NCBI GenBank assembly: GCA_963749075.1
Contig: CAVVLJ010000004.1
Coordinates: 484,477 to 548,476, forward strand
DNA from: an uncultured Pseudomonadota bacterium
Lineage (GTDB): Bacteria > Pseudomonadota > Alphaproteobacteria > JACZXZ01
Direction of reading: 5' to 3'
DNA length: 64,000 bases
The notes beneath the pieces were generated by a model that did no database searches, was not told the DNA's origin, and worked only from the letters and a program-made list of their open reading frames with translations. A program made the position numbers and the translations under genes. This document shows positions 22,225-43,891 of this stretch, piece by piece; the stretch's first letter is position 1; every line of letters begins with the position of its first letter.

Positions 22225-24240
22225 TCAGAGAAGCGCAATGATCAGGATGGCCACGAGCAGCGCACCGATCAGCGAGAGATAAAAATTGAGATGGCCGGAC
22301 TGGATGATGCGCAATCTCGCGGCAACGGCGATGACCAGCCTCTCCAGCGGCGCGAACAGGTACGGCCCGAAAATCGGCGCCACATCGTGGCTGAACACCA
22401 GTCTTCGCACGAAGTACGGCTGGCCGTCCGATTCATGGGCAAGCTCGTGCTCCGTCTCGACGGTAGGCCGGTAGATGAAGCTGTAGAAAGTGCGGAGCGC
22501 GTTGGAGAAGGTGAGCGCCGTGGTCGCCGCCTGGCTCGCATCCTGGTCGCGACCGCCATACCACACCGAGGCACGGCGCACGGCGAAGCGCCTCGTCAGC
22601 AGCAGCAAGCCGAGCGGAACGAGAGCGAGGAGCGGCATCACGACCACGAGCAGGGTCGGCGAGATGAAGGCGAAGGTCTCGGGCACCCGGATCGGCGCCC
22701 CGGTGGCCGGCACGAGGAGCGGCCCGACGTGCATCTTGGCGACGGCCGTGGTGCCGAACTCCCGAGCGACGGCGGTGCCGAGGGAGTCGAGCCAGAGCGG
22801 CATCCCCACCGCCAGTGCCAAGACCAGCAGCCCGAGAAGGCCAACCGCAAGCGAAGCCGCGGCCGGCACCCGGCCGTTCTTGCTCTCGCTGCGGCCCAGC
22901 AGGCCGATGCCGAAGAGCTTGATGAAGATCGCGAAGGCGATGGCCGCCGTGAGCGCCAGCCCGGCGCCGGCCAGCGCCGTCGTCAGCCGGCTCGCGAGGC
23001 TGGTGAGGTGGAAGCCCTGGAAGAAGGTCTGGAAGAGATACCATTCGCTGACGAAGCCGGCCTGGGGCGGCATCGCAGCCAGGCTCATCGCCGCGAAAAG
23101 CGCGCCGAGACCGAATATCCAGGAGCTGCGGGCCAAAATCCCGCGCTGGACGAGCCTGTAGTCGCCGACCGCGCGGTAGACGCCGTCGGCCGCGAGAAAC
23201 AGCGCGCCCTTCGCGAGCGCGTGCCCCGCGAGATGCAGGAGGGCGACGGTCCAGGCAAGACTGGCGAGATCCATGAGGCCGTCCTGGCGGAACATCAGCG
23301 CTGCCCCGAGCAGGCAAACCGCTATCGAGCCGTTCTCGGCCGAGGACAGGCTCAGGAGCTCGCGCCAGGCCTCCTGCTGGAAGGCATAGAGGGCGGTGAG
23401 GATGGCGCTCACCACGGCAATGGCGACGACGAAGATGCCGGCGAGCGAGACCGGCAGCGCGTGGTCGGCCGGCAGCCATTCGATGAGGCCGCGGCTCAGC
23501 GCGAAAAAGGCGGCATTGAGGACGATGCCCGAGAGGAAGGCGCCGGTGGCACCGCTGCCAGCACCATAGGCGCCGGGGAACCATTCGTAGAACGGCAGCA
23601 GGCCGAGCTTGGCGCCGAAGCCGATGAGCAGCAACAGGCCGACAAAGAGCTGCTCGGCGCGCGGCATCGCCGATGCGGCGGCGGCAAAATCGTCGAAGGA
23701 CAGGCTGCGGGCGTGGCCGGCGAGGAGGATGAAGGCGAGAATGAGTGCCACCGCACCGGCCTCGAGCAGGGCCAGCATGAAGAGGACCGGCCGGCCCCTC
23801 TCGGGCGCCAGATCCTCGGAGAGGATCATCACGGCGCCGCCCAGGCTCATGATCTCCCAGGCCACGAGGAAGCTTGCGGCGTCCTGCAGGCCGAAGACGC
23901 CGAGCGCGCCGATCAGGCTCGCGGCCGCCCCGAAGATCCAGCCGCCCTGGCGCGGCGCCGGCGTACCGAGCCAGGACGCGAGCACCGCCCCGGCCAGGCC
24001 AAAGCCGAGGAGCCAGAGCGCCTGCGGCGAGAGACGGAAGACGGCGCCGGCGGGCCCGATCCCGAGCATCGTATGAATGGGCGGCAGCCCTTCGGGCAGC
24101 GCCGCTACGACGAGGATGAGAAGGGCGATGCCGCCGGCCCCGAGCAGCGCTTTGGCCGCGCCGTGCGCGCTGCCGATGAGCCCGAGCAGTGCCGCGATCA
24201 GCCACGCGGCCAGGACCACGGCGAGGAGCTCAGCCGACAA
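22225..24240 (-). CDS. hyfB: Ehr complex 1: HyfB-like (NuoL/MrpA-type) antiporter-like subunit
   Basis: FLVAWEIMS, GAKLGLLPFYEWFP, HALAKGALFL, GFVSEW, QSGHLNFYL. Confidence 0.88.
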   Translation of the reverse strand: MSAELLAVVLAAWLIAALLGLIGSAHGAAKALLGAGGIALLILVVAALPEGLPPIHTMLGIGPAGAVFRLSPQALWLLGFGLAGAVLASWLGTPAPRQGGWIFGAAASLIGALGVFGLQDAASFLVAWEIMSLGGAVMILSEDLAPERGRPVLFMLALLEAGAVALILAFILLAGHARSLSFDDFAAAASAMPRAEQLFVGLLLLIGFGAKLGLLPFYEWFPGAYGAGSGATGAFLSGIVLNAAFFALSRGLIEWLPADHALPVSLAGIFVVAIAVVSAILTALYAFQQEAWRELLSLSSAENGSIAVCLLGAALMFRQDGLMDLASLAWTVALLHLAGHALAKGALFLAADGVYRAVGDYRLVQRGILARSSWIFGLGALFAAMSLAAMPPQAGFVSEWYLFQTFFQGFHLTSLASRLTTALAGAGLALTAAIAFAIFIKLFGIGLLGRSESKNGRVPAAASLAVGLLGLLVLALAVGMPLWLDSLGTAVAREFGTTAVAKMHVGPLLVPATGAPIRVPETFAFISPTLLVVVMPLLALVPLGLLLLTRRFAVRRASVWYGGRDQDASQAATTALTFSNALRTFYSFIYRPTVETEHELAHESDGQPYFVRRLVFSHDVAPIFGPYLFAPLERLVIAVAARLRIIQSGHLNFYLSLIGALLVAILIIALL

Positions 24241-25036
24241 GGCGTCCTCCCCTTGCCCGCTGCGGCAGGCGGTCGAGGAACATGAGCAGCGCCTCGATGA
24301 TCGCGGCAGGATTGGGCGGGCAGCCCGGCAGATAGAGATCGACCGGCAAGACCCCTTCGAGCCCGTTACCGCAGGCGTAGCCTCCGCCGGCGATCCCCCC
24401 CGAGACGGCGCAGGTGCCGACGGCCATCACCCAGCGCGGCTCCGGCATCGCCTGGTAGGCCCGCTGCAAGGGCTCGCGCATGGCATAGCTGACCGGGCCC
24501 GTGACGAGCAGCAGGTCGGCGAAGCGCGGCGACGGCGTGAAGAAGACGCCGAAGCGGTGCAGGTTGTAGAACGGATTGTTGAGGGCCTGGAGCTCGGACT
24601 CGCAGCCGTTGCAGGAGCCGGCATCGACATGGCGGATGTGGAGGCTGCGCCGGAAGCCGTCGCGGGAGGCCGCCGCCGCTTGGCCGGAGACCTCGGCCTT
24701 GCCCTCGGAGAGCAGCAAGTCCGCCCGCTCGCGGACGCCGAACGCCCAGTCGAAGGAGGCCGTTGCCGCGTCGTTGGGGCAGGCCTCGACGCAAAGCTGA
24801 CAGGCAATGCAGCGTCCGTAATCGACCGCGAGCCGGTCCTGACCCGTTTCACCCGCCGCGACCGTGATCGCGGACGTCGGGCAAACGGCGGCGCATTCCT
24901 TGCACGCGGGCGCGCACTTCTGCGGCTCGAAGCGCGGCATGCCGAGCACGCCCTCCTGGCCGGCGTCGGGACCGCCCTTGGGCCAGCGCGTGGTCGCCTT
25001 GCCCTTCTCCAGTCCGAAGAATGTCCAGAGCGGCAT
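24230..25036 (-). CDS. Ehr complex 1: fused 2x[4Fe-4S] ferredoxin (HyfH/NuoI-like) + HyfI/NuoB-like small subunit
   Basis: CAPACKECAAVCP, CIACQLCVEACP, DAGSCNGCESE, GTCAVSGG, PGCPP. Confidence 0.9.
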   Translation of the reverse strand: MPLWTFFGLEKGKATTRWPKGGPDAGQEGVLGMPRFEPQKCAPACKECAAVCPTSAITVAAGETGQDRLAVDYGRCIACQLCVEACPNDAATASFDWAFGVRERADLLLSEGKAEVSGQAAAASRDGFRRSLHIRHVDAGSCNGCESELQALNNPFYNLHRFGVFFTPSPRFADLLLVTGPVSYAMREPLQRAYQAMPEPRWVMAVGTCAVSGGIAGGGYACGNGLEGVLPVDLYLPGCPPNPAAIIEALLMFLDRLPQRARGGRLVG

Positions 25037-25044
25037 GGCCTCCC

Positions 25045-26553
25045 TCAGCGATCGCAGCCCGCGACAGTGAGGCCGAAGCTCGCCTCGTTGATGGCATAGT
25101 CCATCATGTTGCTGTCGTGGACGGTGAAGGGAAAAACGCGCCAGTTGGAGTAGGACGGCGACTTGATCTTGACGCGCGACAGCGCGCCGCGATCGTCGAA
25201 ATGCACGGCGTAGAACAGGGAGCCCCGCGGCGATTCCGCCCAGCCCAGTCCCTCCGCATCGGGCGGCGGCAGGCAATCGGCATGCACCGGGCCCTCGTCG
25301 AGCAGCAGCAAGACCCGCTGCATCAGGGCTATGCTCGCCTCGATCTCGGCCATTCGGACCTGCGCCCGCGCGCGGGCGTCCCCGCTCGTCTTGACCGGCA
25401 CGGCGAGCGGCAGCTCGCCGTAAGCCGCATAGGGATGGTCCCGCCGCAGATCGCGGTCGAACCCCGACGCCCGCTGGATGGGTCCCGTCGCTCCCTGATC
25501 GAAGGCAATCCCGCGAGGCAGGACGCCGGTCGCGATCAGCCGGTCCAGATGACTGTTCGTGTTCTCCAGCATCGTCACATAAAGCGCTATCTGGTCGCGC
25601 AGGCTTTCGAGTGCCGTGCTCAGCCACGGCCCGGGATCGAGGTCGCGCCGGAGGCCGCCCGGGATCAGGAGGCTGCGCAGGAAGCGGCTTCCGGTCAGCC
25701 GGCCGTTGATTTGCTTGGCGCGCTCCTCGAGCAGCTTGCCCTCGGCTTCGCCGACCTTGAGCGTCGTCGTGTGCGAGAGATGGCCGAGATAGTGCAGGTG
25801 GTTGTAAAGCCGCTCGAGCTCGGCGAGCAGCGAGCGCAGCATGCGCGCGCGCGGCGGCACTGCGCACCCCGCCGCCCGCTCCACCGCCTGACAGAAGGCG
25901 AGCGCATGGGCGAAGCTGCCGACGCCGGAGACCCGCTCGGCCAGGATCGTGGCCGCGGCCAGCGAGCGCCCCTCGAAACGCTTCTCCATGCCGCGGTGCT
26001 TGAAGAAGAGCTGGGGATGGCAATGGATGATGTGCTCGCCGACATAGAAGAAGATGAGCTCCGCCGACTCGACCACGTCGGCGCGCACCGGTCCGAAGGG
26101 GAGCCTCTGCACGTCGGCGCCCGCGATCTCCGGGAGGCCGCCATCGGCGGGCGAGAAGGGCAGCGCCGCGTCGGCCGGATAGGCGGGATCGAGGGGCGGC
26201 AGGACCGGATTGGCTCCTTGATGGAGGACGAGCCGGTGAGGGTCGGGATGGTCGCGGAACGCCACGCCGAATAGATCGGCGATCTCGCGCTCGTACCAGC
26301 CGAGGAGCGGGCTGATGGCGGCGACGCTCGGCAGCGGCCCGCGCGGCACGCACCGCCACATGAAGAAGTGCTCCGTCCGGCCGCGGTTTCCGACATAGCG
26401 CAGCTCGAGGCGGCCGGGACCTGCGTACCACGCGTAGGCCATCTGCATGCGGCCGCCGCCCTGGATCAGCTCGCGCACGGCTCCCGGCAGATCCTGCGGC
26501 TCGATCGGTACGATCTCGAGGGCCGGGGTCGCGCGCTCGGCTGCCATGGTCAT
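25045..26553 (-). CDS. Ehr complex 1: HyfG/NuoCD-like large subunit lacking NiFe CxxC motifs
   Basis: YEREIADLFG, HRGMEK, AERVSGVGSFAH (no CxxC), ESPRG, C-terminus ASFGLTVAGCDR. Confidence 0.9.
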   Translation of the reverse strand: MTMAAERATPALEIVPIEPQDLPGAVRELIQGGGRMQMAYAWYAGPGRLELRYVGNRGRTEHFFMWRCVPRGPLPSVAAISPLLGWYEREIADLFGVAFRDHPDPHRLVLHQGANPVLPPLDPAYPADAALPFSPADGGLPEIAGADVQRLPFGPVRADVVESAELIFFYVGEHIIHCHPQLFFKHRGMEKRFEGRSLAAATILAERVSGVGSFAHALAFCQAVERAAGCAVPPRARMLRSLLAELERLYNHLHYLGHLSHTTTLKVGEAEGKLLEERAKQINGRLTGSRFLRSLLIPGGLRRDLDPGPWLSTALESLRDQIALYVTMLENTNSHLDRLIATGVLPRGIAFDQGATGPIQRASGFDRDLRRDHPYAAYGELPLAVPVKTSGDARARAQVRMAEIEASIALMQRVLLLLDEGPVHADCLPPPDAEGLGWAESPRGSLFYAVHFDDRGALSRVKIKSPSYSNWRVFPFTVHDSNMMDYAINEASFGLTVAGCDR

Positions 26554-28015
26554 GGCACCCCCGGGGACAGCGATGCGGCGATCGACGTGAGATAGCTCCA
26601 GACGTCGGCAGGCCACCACAGGCCGAGCACGAGGAGGGGCGCCAAAGCCAGCCACATCGGGACCGCGCACCACGCGGCGATTTTGGCAGCCGGCGGTTGG
26701 GCATCGGACGGCGGGCTGTAGTACATGGAGCGAAAGTGGTTCATGAAACCGACGAAGATCACGATGAGCAGTATCGCCATGACGTAGACCGCCCAGGAGA
26801 AGGACGGCTTCAGCCCGGCCCGCATAATCGTGAACTCGCTGAGAAAGAGGCCGAAGGGCGGCGCACCGGTAATGGCAACGGCGCCGGCGAGCCATAGCGC
26901 GCCCTCGACGGGAAAGCGCCGGCTCACGCCGTTGATCCGAAGGATCTCCTTCGTGCCGTAGGCCCGCATCATGTTCCCAGCGCCGAAGAACATGAGGGAT
27001 TTGTTGAGAGAGTGGTTGAGCATGTGATAGAGCGCGCCGGCCACGCCGAGGGCGCCGCCGAAGCCGAAGCCGAGCGCCACGACACCCATATGCTCGATGC
27101 TCGAGTATGCCATCAGCCGCTTGATGCCCTGCTGGCGCACGATGAAGAGCGCGCCGATGAGGAGCGAGAGGGCGCCGAATGCGACGAGCACGAGCTGCGG
27201 AAGCTCGCCGAGATCGGCAGCGCGCAAGACGCGCAGGAACCGCACGATCCCGATCATCGCGGTGTTCAACAGCGCCCCTGACAGCATCGCCGATACCGGC
27301 GCCGGGCTTTCGCTGTGGGCGTCCGGCAGCCAGCTATGCATCGGCGCCAGCCCGACCTTCGTGCCGTAGCCGACGAGCACGAGGAGGAAGGCGAGGATCA
27401 TCAGGACCGGGTTCATCTTCGGCGCCGCCTGGCCGAGGGCCGCCCAGGTCATCTCATAGCTCGGCCCAAGGACGAAGCTGCCGCACCAGTAGAAGAGCAC
27501 GGTGCCGAGCAGCGCCAGGCTGATCCCGGCCGAGACCACCATGATGTATTTCCAGGCGGCTTCCATGCTCTCGGCGGCGCGCTCGAAGGCGACGAGGAAC
27601 GTGCTGACCAGCGTGGTGAGCTCGATCGCGATCCAATAGATGCCGACATTGTTCATGAGCGGCCCGAGCAAGCGTGGTCAGGCCGAAGCCGGCGAAGAGC
27701 GCATAGAACTTGAAGAGCCGGGCATCCTCGTTCAAGCAGCCGCATGTAGCCGACGGCATAGATCGAGGCGAGGAAATAGACGATCGCGGTGCAGAGGATG
27801 ACCCAGGCTGCGGCCCGGTCGATGATGACGTAGCCGCCCCAGAACAGCATCTCCCGTCCGTCGATCAGAAATGGCAGTGGCAAAGTGCAGGCAAAAGAGA
27901 TCGCACCGGCGATTAGGTTGAGCGCCTCGGAGATACGGGGGCGGCGCAGAACGAGGCAGCCGACGGCCGCCGCCAGAGGCGCAAGGGTGAGCGCGAGAAT
28001 GAGCGACCCGATCAT
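26550..28015 (-). pseudogene. hyfF: Ehr complex 1: HyfF-like subunit with two +1 frameshifts (real or sequencing error)
   Basis: Continuous HyfF homology over three frames; removing the extra bases at ~27734 and ~27670 gives a 487-aa ORF (paralogue is 483 aa). Confidence 0.85.
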
Positions 28016-28695
28016 CAACCGACAAGCCGCTTGAGATCGAGGCTGCTGGTCGTACCGGCATGCGTCATCAAGTATCCGACGAGGACGCCGAAGCAGGCCA
28101 CGACGATAAGAAGGTCGAATAGAATGACCATCTCTATCAATAGCGGCATGCCCGGCACCAGTATCTGCGAGCCCAGGAAGATGCCGTTCTCGAGCACGAG
28201 CAAGCCGAGAATCTGGCTGATCGCCTCGTGGCGGACGGCGAGCAGGAGGAAGCCTATGAGCATCATCGACAGCATGACGGTGAGCGCCAAGACGGCGACG
28301 GTGAGCCCGAGATGGAACTCGGTGGCGATCCGGACCGATACGGAGAGCGCGAACATCACGAATATGGCGCCGACGACGAGGCTGGAGCTCGGCTGGAGGA
28401 TGACGTGGATTTCGCGATCGACGTCGAGGCGGCGGATGATCCGCCAGATGAGGTAGGGCAGCAGAAGGCCGCGAAAGAGCAGCGTAAGGATGGCGATGAG
28501 ATAGAGCTCCGGATAGTTGCCGTAATAGCCGACCGCCGCGGAGAGCGCCGCGATGGCCCAGGATTCCGCCGCGAAGGCGTAGAGGTAGTTCTTGAGCCAG
28601 CGCGATCCCAGCATGACGAAAGAGAGAAGCAGGCTGACGATCGCCAGAAGGCTGAAGAGCGAAGAAGCCAACGGGCTGAGTTGCTGGATGAGCAT
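28015..28695 (-). CDS. hyfE: Ehr complex 1: HyfE-like membrane subunit
   Basis: QILGLLVLENGIF, MPLLIEMVILFD, SLDLKRLVG. Confidence 0.88.
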   Translation of the reverse strand: MLIQQLSPLASSLFSLLAIVSLLLSFVMLGSRWLKNYLYAFAAESWAIAALSAAVGYYGNYPELYLIAILTLLFRGLLLPYLIWRIIRRLDVDREIHVILQPSSSLVVGAIFVMFALSVSVRIATEFHLGLTVAVLALTVMLSMMLIGFLLLAVRHEAISQILGLLVLENGIFLGSQILVPGMPLLIEMVILFDLLIVVACFGVLVGYLMTHAGTTSSLDLKRLVG

Positions 28696-28700
28696 GGCCG

Positions 28701-29648
28701 TTAGCTCAACTGGGTGCCGATGATCGAGAGGACCGCGAAGACGAAGGAGGCGGCAAGCGGCTCCTGATATCGATAGAAACGGAGGCGCGATTGGGCGGTC
28801 TCCACGAACACCACGACGCATGCAACCAGAATGAATTTGACGATCAATCCGGCTGCGGCACCCAGTGCGCCGAGCGCCGTGCCCTTGATTGAGAGGCCCC
28901 AGGGCAGCAGCAGCACGTTGCAAAAGATCGTGTAGAGGATGAACTGCTTCATCGCCGACGCCCATTTGAGGAGCGCCAGCAGCGGACCCGAATATTCGAG
29001 GATGCGGCCCTCCTCGATCATGTAGACCTCGATATGGGTGCTCGAATGGATGGGCATCCGGTCGGTTTCGACGAGGAGGAGGATGAAGAAGGCGGCGACG
29101 AGGAAGAGATGCGCCGGGCTGAAATAGACCGCCCAGCTCGACACCAGGAGATGGTTGACGACGAAGGGGAGCATCGCCTTGGCGAGGAGCGTGATGCCGA
29201 CGAACACGAGGATCAGCGTCGGTTCGGCGAGGATCGAGACCATGACGGCGCGGCTCGAGCCGATGCCGCCATAGGCGCTCGCGCTGTCGAGTCCCGCGAG
29301 GATGATCATGAAGGAGCCGAGCGTGAGGATCAGCCCGCCGCCCAGGATGTCGCCCATGTCGGAGAGCGGCAGCGGAAAGTTGGTCAGCACCGGGATGAGG
29401 ATCGGCACCGTGAGCATGCAGCTGAAGGCAACGAGCGGCGTTACCCAGAACAGCCAGGACGCGGTCTCGGGCACCACGATCTGCTTATGGAAGAGCTTCC
29501 ACAGGTCGCGATAGGGCTGGAAGATGCCGGGGCCCTGGGCGCGCTGCACCCGCTCCTCGAACTGGACGATGATACCCTGGATAAGCGGAGCCAGAAGCAG
29601 CACCGTCAGCACTTGCGCGATCTGGAGGAGGATATCCCGCGCGGTCAT
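28701..29648 (-). CDS. hyfC: Ehr complex 1: HyfC/NuoH-like membrane subunit
   Basis: GPGIFQPYRDLWKLFHK, YGGIGSSR, AEP, ETDRMP, LEYSG. Confidence 0.9.
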   Translation of the reverse strand: MTARDILLQIAQVLTVLLLAPLIQGIIVQFEERVQRAQGPGIFQPYRDLWKLFHKQIVVPETASWLFWVTPLVAFSCMLTVPILIPVLTNFPLPLSDMGDILGGGLILTLGSFMIILAGLDSASAYGGIGSSRAVMVSILAEPTLILVFVGITLLAKAMLPFVVNHLLVSSWAVYFSPAHLFLVAAFFILLLVETDRMPIHSSTHIEVYMIEEGRILEYSGPLLALLKWASAMKQFILYTIFCNVLLLPWGLSIKGTALGALGAAAGLIVKFILVACVVVFVETAQSRLRFYRYQEPLAASFVFAVLSIIGTQLS

Positions 29649-29771
29649 GGGCACGTTCCTCCCGCGAGTGCCCGCCGCTTGGCCGGCTCTCCAGGCAAAC
29701 GCGCATGCGTTCTCTCGGGGGGGCGCCGGGGGCCTCTCATGCAAACTTCTCCTGCGTCCATAAGACGCTTA

Positions 29772-29820: not shown

Positions 29821-29829
29821 CACGCGCGG

Positions 29830-29858: not shown

Positions 29859-29927
29859 TAGAGGATCGGCCATGTGCCGGAATCTGTTGACGCCTTGCTC
29901 GAATCGGCGGAGTCTATGTCCCACAAA

Positions 29928-29973
29928 CGGGATGGAGCTCCCCCGATCCGCCAGCATGGCTGATGGCTCCTAC
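29928..29973 (+). ncRNA. Fluoride riboswitch 2 (upstream of 136-aa hypothetical)
   Basis: CGGGATGGAGCTCCCCCGATCCGCCAGCATGGCTGATGGCTCCTAC, with a covarying GGAGC/GCTCC pseudoknot. Confidence 0.88.
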
Positions 29974-30002
29974 GGCGTCGAGCACGCGGTAGGGGCTTTT
30001 TT
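29966..30002 (+). terminator. Riboswitch-2 intrinsic terminator overlapping the aptamer 3' end
   Basis: GCTCCTAC...GTAGGGGC stem followed by TTTTTT. Confidence 0.85.
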
Positions 30003-30551: not shown

Positions 30552-30618
30552 GGCCAATGGGCATCCGGGCGAGGCGAAAGGTCCCGCGGATCGGGCGGCC
30601 CGGCCGCGACGCGCGATG

Positions 30619-32693: not shown

Positions 32694-32717
32694 CCCACCG
32701 CTTGCGGTGGGTTTTTT
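32694..32717 (+). terminator. Riboswitch-3 terminator, with competing antiterminator arm at 32673-32680
   Basis: CCCACCG-CTTG-CGGTGGG + TTTTTT; a duplicate GCGGTGGG lies upstream. Confidence 0.85.
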
Positions 32718-32835
32718 GTTGCCCCCAGGAAGGGCCCGAGCGGTGAGCGAAACGGCTCGACGAGATACCGGCGCCAAGTTGCGGCCGCCACGCGGCCCGC
32801 GCTCCGACCCCAGCGGGTTACCGGCGGCCGTGCGC

Positions 32836-36239: not shown

Positions 36240-38390
36240 CTACAAAAGGCCCGCGCCGAATATGAGCACGAGCAACAATGTGAGAAGAACGTACGCCGCA
36301 TAGGCGTTGACGTGGCCAACATGCATCCTCCTGACGACACCGGCAACCCTTCGCAAGGCATGCACCGGCGGCCCGAGCACCAGACGATCGACGATGTGAA
36401 CCTCCGTGTGCTCGCGCCTGATGGCCGTGCGGAAATGCCGGGCCACGGCCTCGGTGCTGTCCTCGACCGCGGCCGGACGGAGCAGGACCTGGAAGACGAC
36501 GCGGACAGGATTGGAAAAGCCGGTCGCCGTATAAGTGAGGCCCGGCCAGAGCCGCCGCAGTCCGCCGTCCCAGGCTGCGGCCCGGACGAGCGCGCGTCCT
36601 CGCGTCAGCAAGCGGAAGACCACGAAGGTCAACGCGAGCACGGTCGCGAGGACGACGATGGCGTAGGAAGTCGACATTGCGAAGACCACCGGGTTGCGCT
36701 CCCCGCCGCGATGCAGGACGACGAGACCTCGTCCGGGCAACAGCTCGCTGCCGACCTGGCTACCCAGGTCGTGGAACTCCTTCAGGAATGCCGGCGGAAT
36801 ATTCTCGCGCCGTTGCGCGGCCTCACTGAAGAACGGCGGCACGAGCGCCGCCGTGGCACTCGCGTGGGCGAGGGGCATGGCGGCCCCGTCAAGGACCGGA
36901 ATGACGTAGGTGGGCAGAATTCCGAGAGCAATGCATGATGCGGCGAGCAATCCCAGCGGCACCCGCATGCCGGGACGGGCTTCGACGGCTTGAGCTGCAC
37001 CCTCCGAACGCGGCATGCCGAGAAAGCCCATGGCGAAAACCTTGGCGAAGCATGTGACAGCCAGGCCGGCGGTCAGCGCCAAGAGAGCGCCGCACACCGC
37101 GAAGACGATCTTGATCGCGGTCGAGGACAGAAGGGCGGAACGCAGTATGGTCTGCAGCGTCAGCCACTCGCTGACAAAGCCGTTGAGCGGCGGCAAAGCC
37201 GAGATCGACAGCACGCCCACCAGGAACAGGCCGCTCGTCCAAGGCATACGGCGAGCGATGCCGCCGAGCCGATCGAGGTCCCGGGTTCCGGCTCCGGCCT
37301 CCACGGCGCCGGTGCCGATGAAGAGGAGCGCCTTGTACACCGAGTGGTTCGCGAGGTGATAGAGCGCCGCGATGAGAGCAATCCCCGCGACAACGCCATG
37401 CCCGGTGGCGCGAAAGACCATGGCGGCGCCGACGCCCGCCGCGACGATACCCATGTTCTCGATGGTGCTATGGGCGAGAAGGCGCTTCATCTCGGCCTGG
37501 ATCGTCGCATAGAGAATGCCGACCAGGGCCGAAATGCTGCCGACCGCGAGAACGATCAGGCCGGGGCCGGGCTCCGTGACGGGAACGAGATCGAGATTGA
37601 AGCGAACGATCCCATATATCCCGAGATTGACGATGACCGCGGACAGCAGCGCCGAAACATTGGTCGGCGCCACGGGATGCGCCAGCGGCAACCAGCTATT
37701 GACGGGTACCAGCCCCGCTTTCACGGCGAAGCCAAAGAAAGAGAGGAGGAGAATGGCCCACCTGACGCCCTCTCCGGGCAGCGGCGAGCTCGAGCGCAGA
37801 GCTGGGAAATCGAGCGCTCCGGCGTTGCCGGCGGCAAGAACGAAGGCGATCATGACCGCGATTGTCCCTGCCTCGCTCATCGCCAGCATGACAAAGCCGG
37901 CCTGCGAGCTTTCTTCATGTTCGTATTCGTAAACCACCAGGAGATAGCTCGCGATCGACATCGCCTCCCACGCCACCAAAAAGGAAATCGCGTCGTCGGC
38001 GATCAACACCAGCACGATCGAAGCAAGCAGAGCGTGGTAGAGGATGCTGAAATACCGCAAGCTGCGATGTGGGAGGTATTTCGCGAGATAAGAGCCCGAA
38101 AAGAGCGATACCGGCAGGAAGACCAGCCCGGAGACGAAGAGAAAGAGCGCCGAAAGGCGGTCCGCCGCGAGCCGCAGCGTGCCCAGGGAAAGCACCTGCC
38201 AGAGCCCGATTTGGAAAGAACCGCCGCCGACCAGGAGCCCGCCGCTTGCCGCGAGAAGGACGAGTGCAGCCAGCGAGCCGACCGCCGCCAGGAGCGCGGG
38301 GGTGCGGCGCGCGGGGACCAGGAATGCCGCGACGGCCCCGGTGCCGCAGAGAATAAAGAATGTTGCGATGAGCGGGCCCGCGATGCTCAT
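36240..38390 (-). CDS. hyfB: Ehr complex 2: HyfB-like antiporter-like subunit
   Basis: FLVAWEAMS, VKAGLVPVNSWLPLAHP, LAHSTIENMG, NHSVYKALLF, NGFVSEW. Confidence 0.9.
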   Translation of the reverse strand: MSIAGPLIATFFILCGTGAVAAFLVPARRTPALLAAVGSLAALVLLAASGGLLVGGGSFQIGLWQVLSLGTLRLAADRLSALFLFVSGLVFLPVSLFSGSYLAKYLPHRSLRYFSILYHALLASIVLVLIADDAISFLVAWEAMSIASYLLVVYEYEHEESSQAGFVMLAMSEAGTIAVMIAFVLAAGNAGALDFPALRSSSPLPGEGVRWAILLLSFFGFAVKAGLVPVNSWLPLAHPVAPTNVSALLSAVIVNLGIYGIVRFNLDLVPVTEPGPGLIVLAVGSISALVGILYATIQAEMKRLLAHSTIENMGIVAAGVGAAMVFRATGHGVVAGIALIAALYHLANHSVYKALLFIGTGAVEAGAGTRDLDRLGGIARRMPWTSGLFLVGVLSISALPPLNGFVSEWLTLQTILRSALLSSTAIKIVFAVCGALLALTAGLAVTCFAKVFAMGFLGMPRSEGAAQAVEARPGMRVPLGLLAASCIALGILPTYVIPVLDGAAMPLAHASATAALVPPFFSEAAQRRENIPPAFLKEFHDLGSQVGSELLPGRGLVVLHRGGERNPVVFAMSTSYAIVVLATVLALTFVVFRLLTRGRALVRAAAWDGGLRRLWPGLTYTATGFSNPVRVVFQVLLRPAAVEDSTEAVARHFRTAIRREHTEVHIVDRLVLGPPVHALRRVAGVVRRMHVGHVNAYAAYVLLTLLLVLIFGAGLL

Positions 38391-39160
38391 GTGGCATGCG
38401 CATCCAAGTTGCCGGAGGCTGAGACCAGCCCGGACGGCGGCTTCCTCTCGACCGCCACCAGCAGGCCGTGCAGGATCGCCAGCGGTGGCGGCGGGCATCC
38501 GGGTACGACCACGTCGACCGGGACAAGCTCGGCGACGCCGCCGGCCGCGGCAAAGCTCGGGCCGAAGACGCCGCCGGAGATCGCGCAGGCTCCTATCGCC
38601 ACGACGCGCTTGGGCGGCGGCATCGCCTCGTACGTCTTGCGCAAGGGCAGCCGCATCGCGTCGGAGAGCGGCCCCGCGGCCAGCAGGATGTCGGCATTGC
38701 GCGGCGTCGGGGTGATGAAGAAGCCGAGGCGGTGCATGTTGTAGTAGGGATTGTTGAGCTGCCGGGCCTCGCTCATGCAGGCGCTGCAGGCGCCGGCATC
38801 GACGAAGCGAATGTGCAGCGAACGGCCGAATGCCCGATTCAGCTTGGTTTGCGCAGCCGCCATCTCGTCGCGGTAGGCGGCCCATTCATAGCTTCCCTCC
38901 CATGGGAGGCCAGGCCGAGCCGCGTCGGCATGGCAGCGGAAGCAGTGGACGCAGCGGCCCTGATCGATCGCAGCTCCGTCGCCGCGGCGCAGGATGGCGC
39001 CCGTCGGACAACGCCCGACAAGCGCTTCCGCGTCCTGCTCGGGCAGCGCGCCGGCAGCGAGCGGCCGGCCCGGCGACACGCCCGCCGCCTCGTCGGGCTG
39101 GTCGGGATAGACGCTGGTCTTTATTCCCGTGCTCAAACCCTTCAGTACCCAATTGGCCAT
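38387..39160 (-). CDS. Ehr complex 2: fused ferredoxin-like + HyfI/NuoB-like small subunit
   Basis: CPTGA, CVHCFRC, DAGACSAC, GACAISGG, PGCPP. Confidence 0.9.
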   Translation of the reverse strand: MANWVLKGLSTGIKTSVYPDQPDEAAGVSPGRPLAAGALPEQDAEALVGRCPTGAILRRGDGAAIDQGRCVHCFRCHADAARPGLPWEGSYEWAAYRDEMAAAQTKLNRAFGRSLHIRFVDAGACSACMSEARQLNNPYYNMHRLGFFITPTPRNADILLAAGPLSDAMRLPLRKTYEAMPPPKRVVAIGACAISGGVFGPSFAAAGGVAELVPVDVVVPGCPPPPLAILHGLLVAVERKPPSGLVSASGNLDAHAT

Positions 39161-39168
39161 GGCACGTC

Positions 39169-40788
39169 CTAGCGGTCGCATTCGGCGTTCGACAGGCCGA
39201 AGCTGGCGAGGATGATGGGAAAGTCCTGGAACGCGAAATTTTCGGCGGCGAGATGAAACCCGTGCCAGTTCGGGAATGAGGGCGGGGTCAGGCGGTAGCG
39301 CGCCACCGTGCCATCGCCGTTCAGTCTCACCCAATGGAAGGCGGCACCCGATGGCGCCTCCACCGCGCCGAGCGCCACCCCGGCAGGCCAGCCGGTACGG
39401 CCCGCGTGGATGCGGCCCGCCGGCAGCAGCGAGACATGGCGGCGGATGATCGCGGCTGACTGCTCCGCTTCGGCGAAGAGGATGCGCAGTCGCGCGTAGC
39501 CGTCGCCCTCCCGTTCCACCGGGACCGAGAAGTCGACGGCTTCGTATGAGGCGTATGGCCGGATTTTGCGGAGATCGCGAGCAACGCCCGAGGCGCGGGC
39601 GATCGGGCCGACGAGGCCGTACGACACGGCGGCTTCTCTGGACACGATGCCGACTTCCTCCAGCCGGTCGAGAAAGCTGCTCGAATACAGCAGCATCCGG
39701 TGCAGTTCCCCCAGTTTCCTCGCGATTCCGCCAACCGCCTCCCCGAGGCTGGCGCACTGCGTTTCGCTGAGATCGCAAGCGACGCCGCCCGGTATCACGA
39801 CGCCGAAGAGATATCGGTGGCGCGCGGCCGCGCAACTCAGGCGAAGCAGGTCCTCCTCGATGAGCGCGGCTTGGCTGGCCGCCACGGCCAACGCAGTCGA
39901 GTTGCAGATGCCGGTGATTGCCGCTGCGTGATGCCGCAGGCGTTCGAGTTCGGCGATAACCACGCGGAGCGCCTTTGCGCGCGGCGGCACCTCGATTCCG
40001 CCGATCGTCTCGACGGCCTGGCAGAACCCGAGGCCGTGGGCGAATGCCGCGGTGCCGGAAAAGCGCTCGGCGAGGAGGAGGACGCGATCGACCGGCTGGC
40101 CCTCGGCGATCTTTTCCACTCCGCGGTACTTGTAGAAGAACCGCGGAATCGTGCGAATGACATCCTCGCCTACGGTCTCAAGCAGAAAATGGGCGGACTC
40201 GGCAAAGTCGGAGAACACCGGGCCGACCGGCATGGCGAAGCTGCCTTGCGCCATGACAACCGTCGGCGGCCGCCATGCCGGCTCGGCTTCGCGGGGTTCG
40301 TGCGGCCGTTTCGCATCGAAGCTCCGGCGCATCGGATTGACGCCTTCCGGCCAGTCCTCGTGCAGCACGAATTCGCCGAGCCGGGGATGCCCCTCGAACG
40401 TCAGCCCGAACAGATCCTCGGCCTCGCGCTCGTGCCAATCGACCGCGGGCCCATGGCCGAGACCGCTGATCGACGGCACCGCCACCGCGTGGGCCTCGAG
40501 CCTGAGTCCGACCTGGACCCACGGCGAGCCGGCGGCCCCATAATAGATGTAAGTGAGCGACCACGCGGGGCCGGGCAATTCCTCGACGACCAGCGTCGCG
40601 AAGGCGCAGCCCGCCTCCTCGACCAGCCATTCGCAGAGCTCGCGCAGCTCTTCCGGCCGGCAGTCGATGCGGCAGGACCCGGCCGCATCGTCGCGCCTCG
40701 CCACGACCAGCCCTTTCCAGCGGGCATTGGCGCGCTCGACGATATTTGCCGATCGAAGCCGATCCTCTGCGATCTCGCCGGCCGTCAT
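39169..40788 (-). CDS. Ehr complex 2: HyfG/NuoCD-like large subunit lacking NiFe CxxC motifs
   Basis: WHEREAEDLFG, YRGVEK, AERFSGTAAFAH (no CxxC), C-terminus ASFGLSNAECDR. Confidence 0.9.
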   Translation of the reverse strand: MTAGEIAEDRLRSANIVERANARWKGLVVARRDDAAGSCRIDCRPEELRELCEWLVEEAGCAFATLVVEELPGPAWSLTYIYYGAAGSPWVQVGLRLEAHAVAVPSISGLGHGPAVDWHEREAEDLFGLTFEGHPRLGEFVLHEDWPEGVNPMRRSFDAKRPHEPREAEPAWRPPTVVMAQGSFAMPVGPVFSDFAESAHFLLETVGEDVIRTIPRFFYKYRGVEKIAEGQPVDRVLLLAERFSGTAAFAHGLGFCQAVETIGGIEVPPRAKALRVVIAELERLRHHAAAITGICNSTALAVAASQAALIEEDLLRLSCAAARHRYLFGVVIPGGVACDLSETQCASLGEAVGGIARKLGELHRMLLYSSSFLDRLEEVGIVSREAAVSYGLVGPIARASGVARDLRKIRPYASYEAVDFSVPVEREGDGYARLRILFAEAEQSAAIIRRHVSLLPAGRIHAGRTGWPAGVALGAVEAPSGAAFHWVRLNGDGTVARYRLTPPSFPNWHGFHLAAENFAFQDFPIILASFGLSNAECDR

Positions 40789-40799
40789 CTTAGCGCCCT

Positions 40800-42251
40800 C
40801 TAGCCTCCCATGGCGGCCGCTGCGGCGCGGAGCAGGTCCTGCAGCGCGGCGGGAACGTAGATTCCGACGGCGAGCAATGGAACCGCCGCGAGGACCAGCG
40901 CGAGCTTGCAGGATAGCGGCGGAGCCGAGATTGCCGGGCTCCCTTGCGGCGCGCCGAAAGCCATCCGGTTGACGTGAAACATGACCGCGCAGAAGGCGAT
41001 CACGACGAAGAAAGCCAAGAGCGCGATGGCGACATACTGGCCGGTGGCGATCCCCGCCTTGAAGATCAGGAACTCGCTGATGAAAATTGCAAAGGGCGGC
41101 GCGCCGGCGATCGCGAAGGCGCCGGCCGCGAGTGCCAACGCCGATAGCGGGGCAAATCGGACGAGTCCGCGAACGGCGGCGATCTCTTGCGTACCGCAGG
41201 TCGTCGCGACGAGACCTGCGGCAAAAAAGCAGAAGGATTTGGCGACGGCATGACCGGCCATCTGATAGGCCGCGGCCAGATGCGCCTCGGCCCCGCCGAG
41301 CCCTGCCGCGAAGAGGATGATGCCCATGTGCTCGACCGTCGAGAATGCGAACATGCGCTTGAAGTCCCTGACGTAGACGAGGAGCAGGGTGGCGACCGCG
41401 ACCGAGAGCAGGCCGAAGCCGATGAACCAGGGGCGCGCGTCGAGCGCGGGCACGCCACCCACCACGGGAAAGAGCCGCAGGATGACGTAAAGCACCGTCA
41501 TCGTCTCGACGCCGGAGAGAAGAGCGCAGATCGAAGCCGGCGCCTGGCTATGTGCGTCCGGCAGCCAGGTATGCATCGGCACGAAGCCGACCTTGGTGCC
41601 GAACCCGACAAGAATGAGAAGGAAGGCCGGCCACAGGAGTGCCGGCGGCATGCGCGGTGCGGCGCCGACGAGGCCGACCCACGTGAATGGCTCGTAGCCT
41701 GCAACCCGCGACCCCCAATAGAGGATCAGGAAGCCGAAAAGGGCAAGCACCGCGCCGAGCGTCGTCAACACGACATATTTCCACGCCGCCTCCAGCGCCT
41801 CTGCCGTATCCTCGAAGCCCACGAGGAAGGCGGAAAGCAACGTCGTCAGCTCGACCGCGACCCACATCAGCGCCACATTGGCCAGCACCGGCACGGCCAG
41901 CATGGACATGATGAAGAGATTATAGAGCGCATAGTAATGCTGCTCCTTGCGGGGGCCGGCGTGCGCTGCTCGGAGCCTGATATATCCCCAGGAGAACAGC
42001 GCCGCGGTTGTCCCGACCAGTGCGACCAGGACAAGGACGAGCGCCCCCAGCCCGTCGCAGGTCAGCCATTCTCCGAGCGCATCGACGCGGCCGTTATGGG
42101 CGGCGTCGAGCGCGATGCCGACGGCAAGAACGAGAACGGTCGCGGTCGCGACCAACGTGGTCGGCGCGGCGAAGCGCCGGCCCAGCGGAGACAGCGAGAC
42201 GGCGCTGGCGAGCGCCGGAATGGCAAGTACGGCCGCGAGCTCCATGGCCAC
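40800..42251 (-). CDS. hyfF: Ehr complex 2: HyfF-like subunit
   Basis: WVAVELTTL, ALEAAWKY, GTKVGFVPMHTWLPDAHSQAP, FSTVEHMG. Confidence 0.92.
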   Translation of the reverse strand: MAMELAAVLAIPALASAVSLSPLGRRFAAPTTLVATATVLVLAVGIALDAAHNGRVDALGEWLTCDGLGALVLVLVALVGTTAALFSWGYIRLRAAHAGPRKEQHYYALYNLFIMSMLAVPVLANVALMWVAVELTTLLSAFLVGFEDTAEALEAAWKYVVLTTLGAVLALFGFLILYWGSRVAGYEPFTWVGLVGAAPRMPPALLWPAFLLILVGFGTKVGFVPMHTWLPDAHSQAPASICALLSGVETMTVLYVILRLFPVVGGVPALDARPWFIGFGLLSVAVATLLLVYVRDFKRMFAFSTVEHMGIILFAAGLGGAEAHLAAAYQMAGHAVAKSFCFFAAGLVATTCGTQEIAAVRGLVRFAPLSALALAAGAFAIAGAPPFAIFISEFLIFKAGIATGQYVAIALLAFFVVIAFCAVMFHVNRMAFGAPQGSPAISAPPLSCKLALVLAAVPLLAVGIYVPAALQDLLRAAAAAMGG

Positions 42252-42252
42252 C

Positions 42253-42930
42253 TCAATGCTCCCGCAAGGCGGCCAGCGATCCGACGGCCGTGGTCCCGAG
42301 CCGCCTGTGGATCTGGCGCGTGAGCAGGCCGACCACCAGGGCCACCACCGGCACGTCCACCGCTGCGGCGAGCTCCGCGATCACCGGCAGGCTTGGGACG
42401 ATGGCGATACCCGCAAAGAACACGCCGTTCTCGAGTGCAAGCAAGCCGAGGAGCTGCGGCACCGCTTCGCGCCGGGCCACGACGGTGAACATGCCCAAGA
42501 ACATCGCGGCGATCCCGAGCGGCAGGTTGATCCGTGCAAACGGCACGTCCACGGCACCGAGCATCGGATTCGCGACCGCATAGGCAAGGACGATGAGGAC
42601 CGCCGCCATCAGCAGCGAGCTCGGTATGTTGAGTACCCGCTCGATCTCGCGCGTGCGATAGACTTCGGCGCTGACCGTGCGCCGCAGCACCCAGGGAATC
42701 ATCAGCGTCTTGGTGGCGATCGTGATCGCCGCGACGGCAAAAAGATGCGGCGAGCCGAGCGCGATCCCGAGCAGGACCGCCGAGAGCGTCAGGAGCAAGG
42801 ATTGCGCGATGAAGAGCTGAAGGGACGCGAGAACCTGGCGGGTGGCGACGACCCCGAGCGCCGTGAGGAGGAAGAGCGCGCCGGTCAGCGCGTCGAGTGC
42901 GAAGATGACCGGAAAGGGCGAGCCGTTCAT
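42253..42930 (-). CDS. hyfE: Ehr complex 2: HyfE-like subunit
   Basis: QLLGLLALENGVF, LPVIAEL, SLAALRE. Confidence 0.88.
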   Translation of the reverse strand: MNGSPFPVIFALDALTGALFLLTALGVVATRQVLASLQLFIAQSLLLTLSAVLLGIALGSPHLFAVAAITIATKTLMIPWVLRRTVSAEVYRTREIERVLNIPSSLLMAAVLIVLAYAVANPMLGAVDVPFARINLPLGIAAMFLGMFTVVARREAVPQLLGLLALENGVFFAGIAIVPSLPVIAELAAAVDVPVVALVVGLLTRQIHRRLGTTAVGSLAALREH

Positions 42931-42940
42931 CCCACGGACC

Positions 42941-43891
42941 CTAGATCTCGGACAGCCGCGTGATCATCGCGACGACGGAGATGACGAATGCCGCACCGAG
43001 AAACTCCGTGATGCGAAATAGGCGCAGCTTGGCAAGAGAAGATTCGATGTAGACGAGGACGAGCACGAACACGAAGATCTTGACGAGGACGAGCGGGATG
43101 GCGACCAGCACCTCGACGGCGCCCATGCCGTGCGCCAAGCCCCACGGCGTCACGAGCACGTTGAGAAAGATGCAGATCAGGACGAAGAACTTCATGGCGC
43201 CCGCCCATTTCATGAGCGCGGCGCCGCGTCCTGAGTATTCGAGCGATTTCGACCGGTCGATCATCGCGAGCTCGAACGTCCCGCTCGGACTGTCGACCGG
43301 AATGCGTCCATCCTCCGCGAGGATGAGCATGAGGAAGGCGATCATGAGCAGTACGTGCGAAGGCTCGAAGAAATTCGCGATCGGCGTCACCCAGCGAAGC
43401 TGAACGATGTAAGGGATGGTCGATCCGGCCACGAAGGAAACCGTGAGAAAGACCACGATGAAGACCGGCTCGGCGAGGAATCCGACCATGCGGGTGCGGC
43501 TCGCCCCCATCGGCCCGTAGGGGTTTGCCGTGTCCACGGCGGCGAGCGTCGCGAAGAAGCCGCCGAGGGCGAGGATGAAGCCGCCGCCGAGCATGTCCCC
43601 CATGAAGGCGAAGAAGAGCGGATACTGCGTGAGCACGGGGATCAGGAGCGTCACGAAGACCGGTGCCGCGAACGCGACATAGGGAGCCGCGCGGAAGATC
43701 CAGGAGCTCTGCTCGGACACGATTTCGTCCTTGTGCAGGAGCTTCCACAGGTCACGATAGGGTTGAAGGATGCTCGGACCGCGCTTCGACTGGAGATGTT
43801 CCTTCAGTCGGCTTGCGACGCCTTCGACGAGGGGAGCGAAGGCGATCACGACGAAGACCTGGAGAAGATTGTAGATGATCCGCGCGGCCAT
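42941..43891 (-). CDS. hyfC: Ehr complex 2: HyfC/NuoH-like subunit
   Basis: GPSILQPYRDLWKLLHK, YGPMGASR, EDGRIPVD, LEYSG, AKLRLFR. Confidence 0.92.
   Translation of the reverse strand: MAARIIYNLLQVFVVIAFAPLVEGVASRLKEHLQSKRGPSILQPYRDLWKLLHKDEIVSEQSSWIFRAAPYVAFAAPVFVTLLIPVLTQYPLFFAFMGDMLGGGFILALGGFFATLAAVDTANPYGPMGASRTRMVGFLAEPVFIVVFLTVSFVAGSTIPYIVQLRWVTPIANFFEPSHVLLMIAFLMLILAEDGRIPVDSPSGTFELAMIDRSKSLEYSGRGAALMKWAGAMKFFVLICIFLNVLVTPWGLAHGMGAVEVLVAIPLVLVKIFVFVLVLVYIESSLAKLRLFRITEFLGAAFVISVVAMITRLSEI

Follow-up and report, generated by a model that had tools for sequence, protein, structure and literature searches.

Two operons that resemble those of hydrogenase-4 lie in one stretch of DNA from a soil bacterium, each behind a fluoride riboswitch. 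What would complexes of this build do for a cell that meets fluoride? The stretch (G000:C4:484477-548476, 64,000 nucleotides (nt), G+C ~0.68; hereafter "the window") belongs to a genome that is 96.31% complete with 5.15% contamination, and the two hyf-like operons, which are distantly related copies, are both on its minus strand. The riboswitch link to "formate hydrogen lyase" dates in print from 2010, when passages of PMC2864571 placed the crcB motif upstream of mutS, of K+/Cl- transport genes and of "formate hydrogen lyase". The link is repeated in a passage of PMC8004769, and the section of a 2024 review (PMC11139923) that deals with it counts "formate hydrogen lyase" among the enzymes commonly associated with the riboswitch and interprets it as anaerobic fermentation.

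Judged from their sequences, both complexes are NiFe-less Ehr-type relatives of group 4 hydrogenases and not hydrogenases, and the fluoride switches point to a role in surviving fluoride, not in hydrogen production. The identity and the regulation of both operons are well supported. As to function, we favor the reading that the complexes would be fluoride-induced ion translocators for pH and proton-motive-force homeostasis, the chances of which seem to us about even.

Relatives of hydrogenase-4 without a NiFe site

Operon 1 (type T1) and operon 2 (type T2) both read hyfC-E-F-G-(H/I fusion)-B, with six genes each. This order, with hyfB last, had been given in a preliminary description of the same DNA, and it agrees with the Pfam and NCBIfam matches. 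The genes of operon 1 are as follows:

28701..29648, minus strand: T1 HyfC/NuoH-like subunit, 315 residues from an ATG at 29648 (Pfam NADHdh 3.5e-33)
28015..28695, minus strand: T1 HyfE-like subunit, 226 residues (NCBIfam NF008556 6.2e-15, under the cut-off; alignment with E. coli HyfE)
26550..28018, minus strand: T1 HyfF-like antiporter-type gene, split into open reading frames (ORFs) 27653-28018 and 26550-27671
25045..26553, minus strand: T1 large subunit, 502 residues, without NiFe Cys (ERVSGVGSF, ...AGCDR)
24230..25036, minus strand: T1 HyfH/HyfI fusion, 268 residues, with 8 ferredoxin Cys and 4 NuoB-type Cys
22225..24240, minus strand: T1 HyfB-like antiporter-type subunit, 671 residues (Pfam Proton_antipo_M 7.6e-28)
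22116..22202, minus strand: crcB stub, the first 29 codons of a truncated seventh T1 operon gene (tblastn)

Those of operon 2 are as follows:

42941..43891, minus strand: T2 HyfC/NuoH-like membrane subunit, 316 residues (Pfam NADHdh 3.2e-31)
42253..42930, minus strand: T2 HyfE-like membrane subunit, 225 residues (NF008556 3.4e-19, under the cut-off)
40800..42251, minus strand: T2 HyfF-like antiporter-type subunit, 483 residues (Pfam Proton_antipo_M 1.9e-46)
39169..40788, minus strand: T2 large subunit (NuoC-NuoD/HyfG-like), 539 residues, without NiFe Cys (ERFSGTAAF, ...AECDR)
38387..39160, minus strand: T2 HyfH/HyfI fusion, 257 residues, with the ligands of a single ferredoxin cluster and of the NuoB-type cluster
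36240..38390, minus strand: T2 HyfB-like antiporter-type subunit, 716 residues, last gene (Pfam Proton_antipo_M 4.6e-52)

Domains were called with Pfam and NCBIfam, and RNAs with Rfam (gathering score of RF01734, 34 bits). Pfam recognized Complex1_30kDa, Complex1_49kDa and an N-terminal stretch of NiFeSe_Hases in the large subunits, and Oxidored_q6, with or without Fer4, in the H/I fusions. The HyfE-like proteins are silent in Pfam and matched NCBIfam NF008556 ("hydrogenase 4 membrane subunit"), both under the cut-off; on alignment, the T2 protein has a LENG motif in common with E. coli HyfE. The NCBIfam scores were 272.8 (T1) and 568.9 (T2; "hydrogenase 4 subunit B") against a cut-off of 667 for HyfB, 349.9 and 337.5 against 610 for HyfF, and 55.7 and 69.6 against 136 for HyfE. 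Since all Hyf, Hyc and Nuo equivalog scores of both operons fell under the curated cut-offs, the proteins are related to the E. coli enzymes only distantly and are not their orthologues.

Relatives of the operons were collected in a scan with one genome per species, from which the best 80 of at least 442 confirmed stretches were taken as related loci (L-numbers). Sorted by large-subunit identity to both window proteins, these comprise 24 T1 loci, 48 T2 loci and 8 that are neither.

The NiFe site is missing throughout T1 and T2. In an alignment that included 7z0s_E, the RVCGICGF of E. coli HyfG/HycE is replaced by ERVSGVGSF in operon 1 and ERFSGTAAF in operon 2, and DPCYSCTDR by GLTVAGCDR and GLSNAECDR, as the preliminary description had read from the letters; at the NiFe ligand positions, 0/4 residues are Cys in either window protein. 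None of the 24 T1 and 47 T2 relatives in the alignment has any of the four Cys, which only the outgroup locus L031 keeps. Both large subunits stop at the aligned Arg of ...CDR without a C-terminal extension, and thus offer no extension for a maturation protease to act on. HypD, HupF/HypC and HycI were not found in the 96.31% complete genome (HypA, HypB, HypE and HypF were not searched), which for HypD, HypC and HycI extends to the genome a lack of maturation genes first noticed in the window. Among solved structures, HycE (7z0s_E) matches the T1 large subunit best (E 1.9e-54).

Counterparts of HyfB, C, E, F, G, H and I of the E. coli Hyc (PDB 7Z0S) and Hyf systems are all present in the window operons, which differ from those systems in lacking the NiFe Cys, HyfA, HyfD, HyfJ, HycB and FdhF, in the fusion of HyfH and HyfI, in the last position of hyfB and in equivalog scores under the cut-offs. 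Neither operon holds a formate dehydrogenase or HycB-like gene. By the old annotation and the gene names in passages of the crcB-motif literature (PMC2864571, PMC11139923, PMC8004769), the complexes would be genuine formate hydrogenlyases or hydrogenases-4 that evolve H2. This idea has next to nothing in its favor beyond those names: the four Cys, a cleavable extension, a formate dehydrogenase or HycB-like gene in the operons and an equivalog score above a cut-off are all wanting, HypC, HypD and HycI were not found in the genome, and we give the idea almost no credence.

The complexes fit the Ehr group instead. In the relevant part of PMC6349859, Ehr complexes are group 4 NiFe hydrogenase relatives without Ni/Fe-coordinating residues and with Mrp antiporter-like subunits, their function being called unresolved there; a passage of PMC5037454 adds that HydDB leaves them out as homologues that do not metabolize H2. 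The window complexes have such group 4-related large subunits without Ni/Fe ligands, and two Proton_antipo_M proteins per operon. The Ehr-type, NiFe-less identity that had been proposed is thus upheld by the loss of the NiFe motifs together with the Pfam and NCBIfam relationships. What sets the clade of the window apart from other Ehr complexes is its fluoride riboswitch leader, the hyfC-first and hyfB-last order and the H/I fusion; a formate dehydrogenase or NuoEF-like partner of the kind proposed in that part of PMC6349859 is in neither window operon, and none was noticed adjoining them. No paper tying NiFe-less or Ehr complexes to fluoride was found in the open-access literature searched.

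Fluoride riboswitches and the T1 and T2 clades

The window contains four fluoride riboswitches:

44084..44144, minus strand: fluoride riboswitch leading operon 2 (T2), RF01734 60.1 bits
29766..29828, minus strand: fluoride riboswitch leading operon 1 (T1), RF01734 50.4 bits
32603..32664, plus strand: fluoride riboswitch leading a MutS-like gene pair, RF01734 43.2 bits, with a predicted terminator
29919..29979, plus strand: fluoride riboswitch leading orf136, RF01734 40.7 bits, with a predicted classical U-tract terminator

All four matches pass the gathering score and span the full model (positions 1-64), and a search of the whole genome returned these four and none beyond the window. The claim that each operon has a fluoride switch of its own is confirmed by the 50.4 and 60.1 bits, against a gathering score of 34. 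The operon-2 switch is real but lies just beyond 43891, where the region described earlier ended, and the window adds two more switches to those of the operons. As in the fluoride regulon of PMC2864571, in the passages that list its genes, mutS-like and "formate hydrogen lyase" genes stand downstream of aptamers that pass the gathering score; the window genome differs in having four switches and no fluoride exporter gene that we could find.

The leaders of the two operons may work through a strand shared between aptamer and hairpin. Fold prediction gives hairpins with U-tracts for both plus-strand switches, and for both operon leaders hairpins that use the CUCCU strand of the aptamer and have no U-tract; scanning for consensus promoters and terminators turned up no terminator on the minus strand behind the leader of either operon. 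In the predicted T1 hairpin, the CUCCU of the aptamer 3' strand pairs with an AGGAG Shine-Dalgarno-like box that precedes a short ORF:

29645..29740, minus strand: 31-codon leader ORF whose TGA stop overlaps the hyfC ATG (ATGA), by sequence reading

In the T2 leader a long downstream hairpin is predicted to take up the aptamer 3' strand (fold z = -5.18). As fluoride rises, the aptamer pseudoknot would hold the 3' strand that otherwise forms the downstream hairpin, and the operon would be expressed.

Is this linkage a property of one genome or of a group? A large-subunit tree of 85 rows was built from 79 of the 80 loci (L037, a fragment of < 380 residues, was dropped), three proteins of the window genome and three E. 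coli references (HyfG, HycE and NuoCD); it was made in quick mode, with long branches flagged and a root for drawing only. T1 (25 rows) and T2 (48 rows) are supported by values of 99 and 100, respectively, in the Shimodaira-Hasegawa-like approximate likelihood ratio test (SH-aLRT). Together with three actinobacterial rows they make up a 76-row clade (SH-aLRT 99) from which HyfG, HycE, NuoCD, the four-Cys hydrogenase L031 and the genome's third hyf-like protein are excluded. A phylogeny of the kind that the preliminary description had proposed as a check, here with HyfG, HycE and NuoCD as references, places both operons outside these references and within one clade.

The window T1 and T2 large subunits share 37% identity, and the loci sorted to them share 57-83% with operon 1 (T1) and 47-74% with operon 2 (T2). 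A recent duplication as the origin of T1 and T2 was ruled out by the 37% identity and by the deep, well-supported separate clades. Where the preliminary description had suggested different specificities for the two paralogues, the tree and the ligand patterns described below indicate no more than ancient, deep sister clades of different Fe-S content, T1 being mainly alphaproteobacterial and T2 widespread. Joint possession of both types is uncommon: among the 24 other T1-bearing genomes, two also hold a T2-type protein, at 72% (G024) and 51% (G034). Three unpublished genomes, G013 (L007), G026 (L020) and G030 (L024), have rows in the tree and are counted in the CrcB and both-type tallies. A Rhodanobacter metagenome-assembled genome (MAG), L042, has a T1-type (2066-3553(+)) and a T2-like (11174-12583(-)) large-subunit gene in one 13.5-kb locus, and is thus, after the window, another instance of the two types lying next to each other.

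To count riboswitches, a covariance model (R1) made from the four window aptamers was run on all 80 loci. R1 missed or under-scored AT-richer relatives (L055, L079 and several matches < 25 bits), and 18 of the 80 loci (7 + 5 + 6) were rechecked with Rfam. Upstream DNA was too short in 5/24 T1 and 4/48 T2 loci and also in L066 and L076. A plus-strand switch lies 3140-3237 nt upstream of the large-subunit gene in all 19 testable T1 loci (two of them, L020 and L024, from the unpublished genomes). For T2, 42 of the 44 testable loci had an R1 match at E <= 0.1, a count that rose to 43 after the Rfam recheck, which confirmed a switch in the apparent negatives L055 and L079 and in nine weak cases; L077 stays unconfirmed. 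The actinobacterial trio is positive throughout (L047 and L053 by Rfam, L032 by R1 at E 4e-5), and the outgroups L030, L031 and L075 gave 0/3. Across the T1, T2 and actinobacterial clade, then, 65/66 testable loci carry the riboswitch: the count suggested earlier has been made, and the linkage is near-obligate.

The genome's third hyf-like operon (G000:C16:1078000-1097000, L087; large subunit L087:9149-10672(-)) has hyfB first. Its large subunit is also NiFe-less (ARISGDSTVGH / SFNCSYSGADL), it has no fluoride riboswitch, and its HyfB-like subunit retains the central Lys of transmembrane helix (TM) 8. Matches of third-operon strength (31-35% identity to the T1 large subunit) occur in 9 of the 11 genomes of the family comparison that follows.

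Fluoride exporters and the family of the window genome

No gene of a known fluoride exporter (Fluc/CrcB or CLC-F) was found in this genome with its four switches. There is no PF02537 (CrcB) match in the genome, and the crcB stub at 22116-22202(-) is its sole CrcB-like match by tblastn. The stub is 86% identical to residues 1-29 of the CrcB encoded after hyfB in L005, L006 and L008, and DNA similarity to these relatives ends near 22115. About 1.1 kb from the truncation point lies a group II intron-derived element of 730 nt (20311-21040(+); RF02003, RF00029), copies of which, 93-99% alike, are present on contigs C2, C21, C17 and C22. The two genomic CLC genes read GREGP and GREGA, and no CLC-F signature (GNNLI/GMGLI, GREGT/V or GEVTP, taken from PMC11139923) was found in a CLC context anywhere in the genome.

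In several relatives, crcB and the complex stand in one operon. By BLAST with six seed proteins, crcB directly follows hyfB in at least 6/20 testable T1 loci (L020 among them) and at least 1/39 testable T2 loci; in several T2 loci, crcB comes after the switch and before hyfC. As many as 18 of the 24 T1-bearing genomes have CrcB somewhere, by which the complexes were ruled out as a general replacement of CrcB.

Eleven genomes of the family were compared, six of them (G000 and G002-G006) of the window genus:

G000 (window): CrcB no; T1 + T2; riboswitch-led Na_H_Exchanger no
G006 (window genus): CrcB no; T2; riboswitch-led Na_H_Exchanger no
G002-G005 (window genus): CrcB no; complexes none; riboswitch-led Na_H_Exchanger yes
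G001: CrcB no; T1; riboswitch-led Na_H_Exchanger no
G010: CrcB yes; T1; riboswitch-led Na_H_Exchanger no
G007: CrcB yes; complexes none; riboswitch-led Na_H_Exchanger yes
G008, G009: CrcB yes; complexes none; riboswitch-led Na_H_Exchanger no, no switch found

CrcB is thus found in 0/6 genomes of the window genus. Complexes occur in four of the 11 genomes, a riboswitch-led exchanger in five, both in none and neither in two. In each of G002-G005 a single switch leads an operon of Na_H_Exchanger (394 residues, PF00999), Usp and a 113-residue orf136 homologue; in G007 the single switch is just upstream of an exchanger that is 83% identical. The island of G006 has one switch before the MutS-like pair, one before the orf136 homologue and one before a T2 operon whose genes are 74-93% identical to those of the window.

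Could the complexes export fluoride themselves, as an energized F-/HF pump that is the main efflux route of this CrcB-less genus? Such a pump would suit the absence of CrcB from all six genomes (in the window genome, only the 29-codon stub), the two CLC genes without CLC-F signatures and the lack of any in a CLC context genome-wide, the near-obligate riboswitch control (65/66 testable loci) and an unusual, invariant Asn at the position of the central TM8 Lys, described below. A general role of the complex in F- export, however, is made less likely by the presence of CrcB in 18/24 T1-bearing genomes and by its co-transcription with the complex in relatives, which suggests cooperation and not replacement. 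Siblings that have neither CrcB nor complexes carry only the riboswitch-led Na+/H+ exchanger, so the genus seems to manage without a dedicated exporter. We also know of no anion-transporting member of this protein superfamily. Direct export is therefore improbable in our judgment. Should it be true, the complexes would be a third kind of fluoride exporter, on a complex I/Mrp scaffold and with the TM8 Asn in the anion path, a proposal that we hold with the same considerable doubt; the complexes, or the Na+/H+ exchanger of the siblings, would then be the only defense in this genus, and T1 and T2 would differ in powering, by a three- versus a two-cluster electron wire.

A different doubt concerns operon 1 alone, which might be a decaying, non-functional copy in this genome, with only operon 2 at work. 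Its hyfF is split by two single extra bases near 27737 and 27667, 62 nt apart (DNA alignment with four orthologues), whereas both parts are in one frame in all 13 orthologous loci where both matched. Its last gene, crcB, is truncated, mobile DNA is nearby (the 730-nt repeat and an IS630 transposase), and of the six genomes of the genus this is the only one with T1. Speaking against decay are X1 and X2, two public runs labelled soil metagenome: their near-identical contigs lack the extra base near 27737, and that of X2 also lacks the one near 27667 (X1 has no cover there). These contigs show three other letter differences from the window over 300-400 nt and may come from the source sample or a close strain; short pieces in runs X3 and X9, 90-95% alike across the break, are uninformative on the extra bases. 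Frame breaks in a CLC gene of the same assembly and in the hyfF of the related assembly L006 suggest, moreover, that such assemblies contain indel errors, and the other T1 genes are all intact, with key residues conserved. Either the hyfF breaks are assembly errors, or close strains hold an intact gene, and decay of operon 1 strikes us as an improbable account. The CLC gene, which has CBS domains (G000:C16:254720-255740, L002), appears to be split into two frames and is the second apparent break in this assembly.

Two further units in the island have switches of their own:

30141..30551, plus strand: orf136, a conserved protein that belongs to no known family, with a fluoride riboswitch of its own
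32707..35933, plus strand: two MutS-domain-V ATPase genes, 32707-34425 and 34422-35933 (Pfam MutS_V)

orf136 has no Pfam match. Its 37 relatives found are all unnamed or "hypothetical", one paralogue is on contig C15, and in the sibling genomes its homologue comes third in the riboswitch-led operon, after Na_H_Exchanger and Usp. The AlphaFold model is confident (mean predicted local distance difference test score 84.1) and shows a helix, an antiparallel sheet and a helix; in a Foldseek search of the PDB, nothing matched it at E <= 0.001 (best E 7e-3, TM-score 0.32-0.38). The second MutS-like gene begins with a GTG that overlaps the stop of the first (GTGA), and homologues of the two, often with a switch of their own, are present in 17 and 16 of the 80 loci.

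A histidine phosphatase gene (His_Phos_1, 30619-31242(-)) has homologues in 11/80 loci, often beside the operon leader and, in L032, directly behind a riboswitch. Between it and the riboswitch of the MutS-like pair, inside the fluoride island, is an IS630-family transposase gene (DDE_3 + HTH, 31276-32355(-)). Just upstream of the operon-2 switch are convergent genes for a WD40-repeat protein (44482-45954(+)) and a 690-residue multi-ferredoxin-domain protein (45955-48027(-)), both outside operon 2.

Electron supply, ion path and function

How might the complexes help against fluoride? In the reading that we favor, protons or cations would move via the HyfB/HyfF antiporter-type subunits and a HyfC/HyfE channel. 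This translocation would counter the effects of hydrogen fluoride (HF) influx, namely an acidified cytoplasm and a drained proton-motive force, and would help to sustain the membrane potential by which F- leaves through Fluc in cells that have this channel. For T1, the driving electrons would probably still come from a soluble low-potential donor; what would drive T2 is less clear. In the window genus, the complexes would fill the regulatory slot that a riboswitch-controlled Na+/H+ exchanger has in the siblings.

The membrane arm is in keeping with ion transport. With residue numbers of E. coli NuoL, NuoM and NuoN verified on the sequences themselves, the Glu of TM5, the Lys of TM7 and the Glu of TM12 proved to be kept in 19-20/20 T1 and 41-43/43 T2 rows of the HyfB-like subunits and in 22-23/23 T1 and 40-47/47 T2 rows of the HyfF-like subunits, the T2 HyfF-like protein of the window included. 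The antiporter-type residues are thus under clear conservation in both clades, in line with the earlier claim that antiporter-like subunits are retained. In these three residues, as in the NuoB-, C-, D-, H- and I-like and NuoL/M/N-like modules, the complexes resemble complex I and Mrp; unlike complex I, they have no NuoEFG input module (no NuoE-, F- or G-like gene is in either operon), and they differ from it at the quinone-site Tyr and the central TM8 Lys.

The peripheral arm retains an electron wire of differing length. An H/I fusion gene adjoins the large-subunit gene in 76/80 loci. Both window fusions keep four NuoB-type Cys, as the preliminary description had noted, and in that of operon 1 both ferredoxin motifs are complete (CxxxCxxCxxxCP and CxxCxxCxxxCP). 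Among T1 relatives, all 8 ferredoxin Cys are present in 22/23 rows (the exception is L026), three NuoB-type Cys in 21/21 full-length rows and the fourth in 20/21. Because all 12 Fe-S Cys are kept, a soluble low-potential electron drive is plausible for T1.

In the operon 2 fusion, motif 1 has only its last Cys left, and motif 2 its first three. Two-cluster ferredoxins usually cross-ligate between their motifs, and by this pattern the remaining Cys are the ligand set of one cluster. Going by Nqo9, we take the cluster kept to be the one next to the NuoB-type cluster, and the one lost would accordingly be the distal cluster. The loss of one ferredoxin cluster had been suspected for complex 2; it holds good as a trait of the whole T2 clade.

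Several observations sit badly with ion pumping of this kind. (i) Not one of the 47 T2 rows has Cys 1-3 of motif 1 or Cys 4 of motif 2 (the other four are kept save for one substitution in L067). The fourth NuoB-type Cys is N, H or Q in 17/47 T2 rows, although the window T2 keeps Cys, and the actinobacterial L032 has Asp at NuoB-type Cys 1-3 and Ser at the fourth. Across the wider group the electron wire thus shortens stepwise, and with such decay of the Fe-S chain the common function may not be redox-driven. (ii) The position of the quinone-site Tyr of E. coli NuoCD (RIEY), which we take to be Y87 of T. thermophilus Nqo4, is Gly in both large subunits. (iii) No electron-input gene was noticed directly after hyfB or behind neighboring riboswitches, in gene lists read by eye and not scanned for families. 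(iv) The central TM8 Lys is replaced by Asn in the HyfB-like subunits of 20/20 T1 and 43/43 T2 rows and in the T1 HyfF-like subunits (22/22 rows with the residue), and the T2 HyfF-like subunits have T, S, A or M there (in the window, Met, with Asn in the HyfB-like partner); the ion path may therefore differ from that of known pumps. (v) The 11 family genomes are close kin, and few events may explain their pattern; the exchange is not absolute either, since L074 combines a T2 operon with a riboswitch-led exchanger at a single locus. (vi) Neither CrcB nor a CLC-F signature, either of which would give F- a way out of the cell, was found in the genome. The redox coupling proposed in the preliminary description consequently stands as only plausible for T1, with its 12 Fe-S Cys: the wire shrinks across the wider clade, the quinone Tyr is Gly in both types, and no electron-input gene was seen at the positions looked at.

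The T2 subclade with N, H or Q at the fourth NuoB-type position comprises L036, L041, L043, L045, L052, L055, L057, L059, L061, L062, L064, L068, L069, L072, L073, L079 and L080, with hosts among Verrucomicrobiota, Steroidobacteraceae, beta-proteobacterial MAGs and others.

Much of the same evidence would suit secondary cation/proton antiporters of the Mrp kind, which run without electrons; the peripheral arm would then be a structural or regulatory relic. By converting between delta-pH and membrane potential, such antiporters would lower the weak-acid trapping of fluoride. The mutual exclusion with the riboswitch-led Na_H_Exchanger in the family (four versus five genomes, none with both), the stepwise loss of Fe-S ligands, the missing NiFe ligands and quinone-site Tyr, the failure to notice a partner oxidoreductase at the positions read and the conserved antiporter-type residues are all in its favor. 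Known Mrp antiporters, unlike the window complexes, have no peripheral arm and need none, and here an arm of ~770 residues (large subunit plus H/I fusion) is well conserved, T1 large subunits being 57-83% identical. This conservation, together with 12 Fe-S Cys kept in T1 almost without exception, makes the status of a relic hard to explain, and we regard an electron-free antiporter as unlikely, if worth keeping in view, beside the fluoride-induced ion translocator that we favor.

New in this account are the T1 and T2 sister clades, the 65/66 riboswitch linkage, the clade-wide cluster loss in T2, the crcB stub, the exchanger swap and the hyfF break. The genes long listed as "formate hydrogen lyase" in the fluoride regulon cannot be hydrogenases, which corrects a reading that has been repeated ever since. 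For Ehr complexes, which are widespread and related to complex I and to membrane hydrogenases, the near-obligate fluoride riboswitch on a large clade gives a concrete condition under which function can be tested. Experiments are feasible because one relative, the Acidiphilium iwatense strain of L027, whose T1 operon has a riboswitch, is in culture. The window itself is a natural comparison, with two ancient sister types in one cell, of three and two Fe-S clusters, in a lineage without a known fluoride exporter, and the swap with a Na+/H+ exchanger within the genus hints at the physiological role that these complexes may have.

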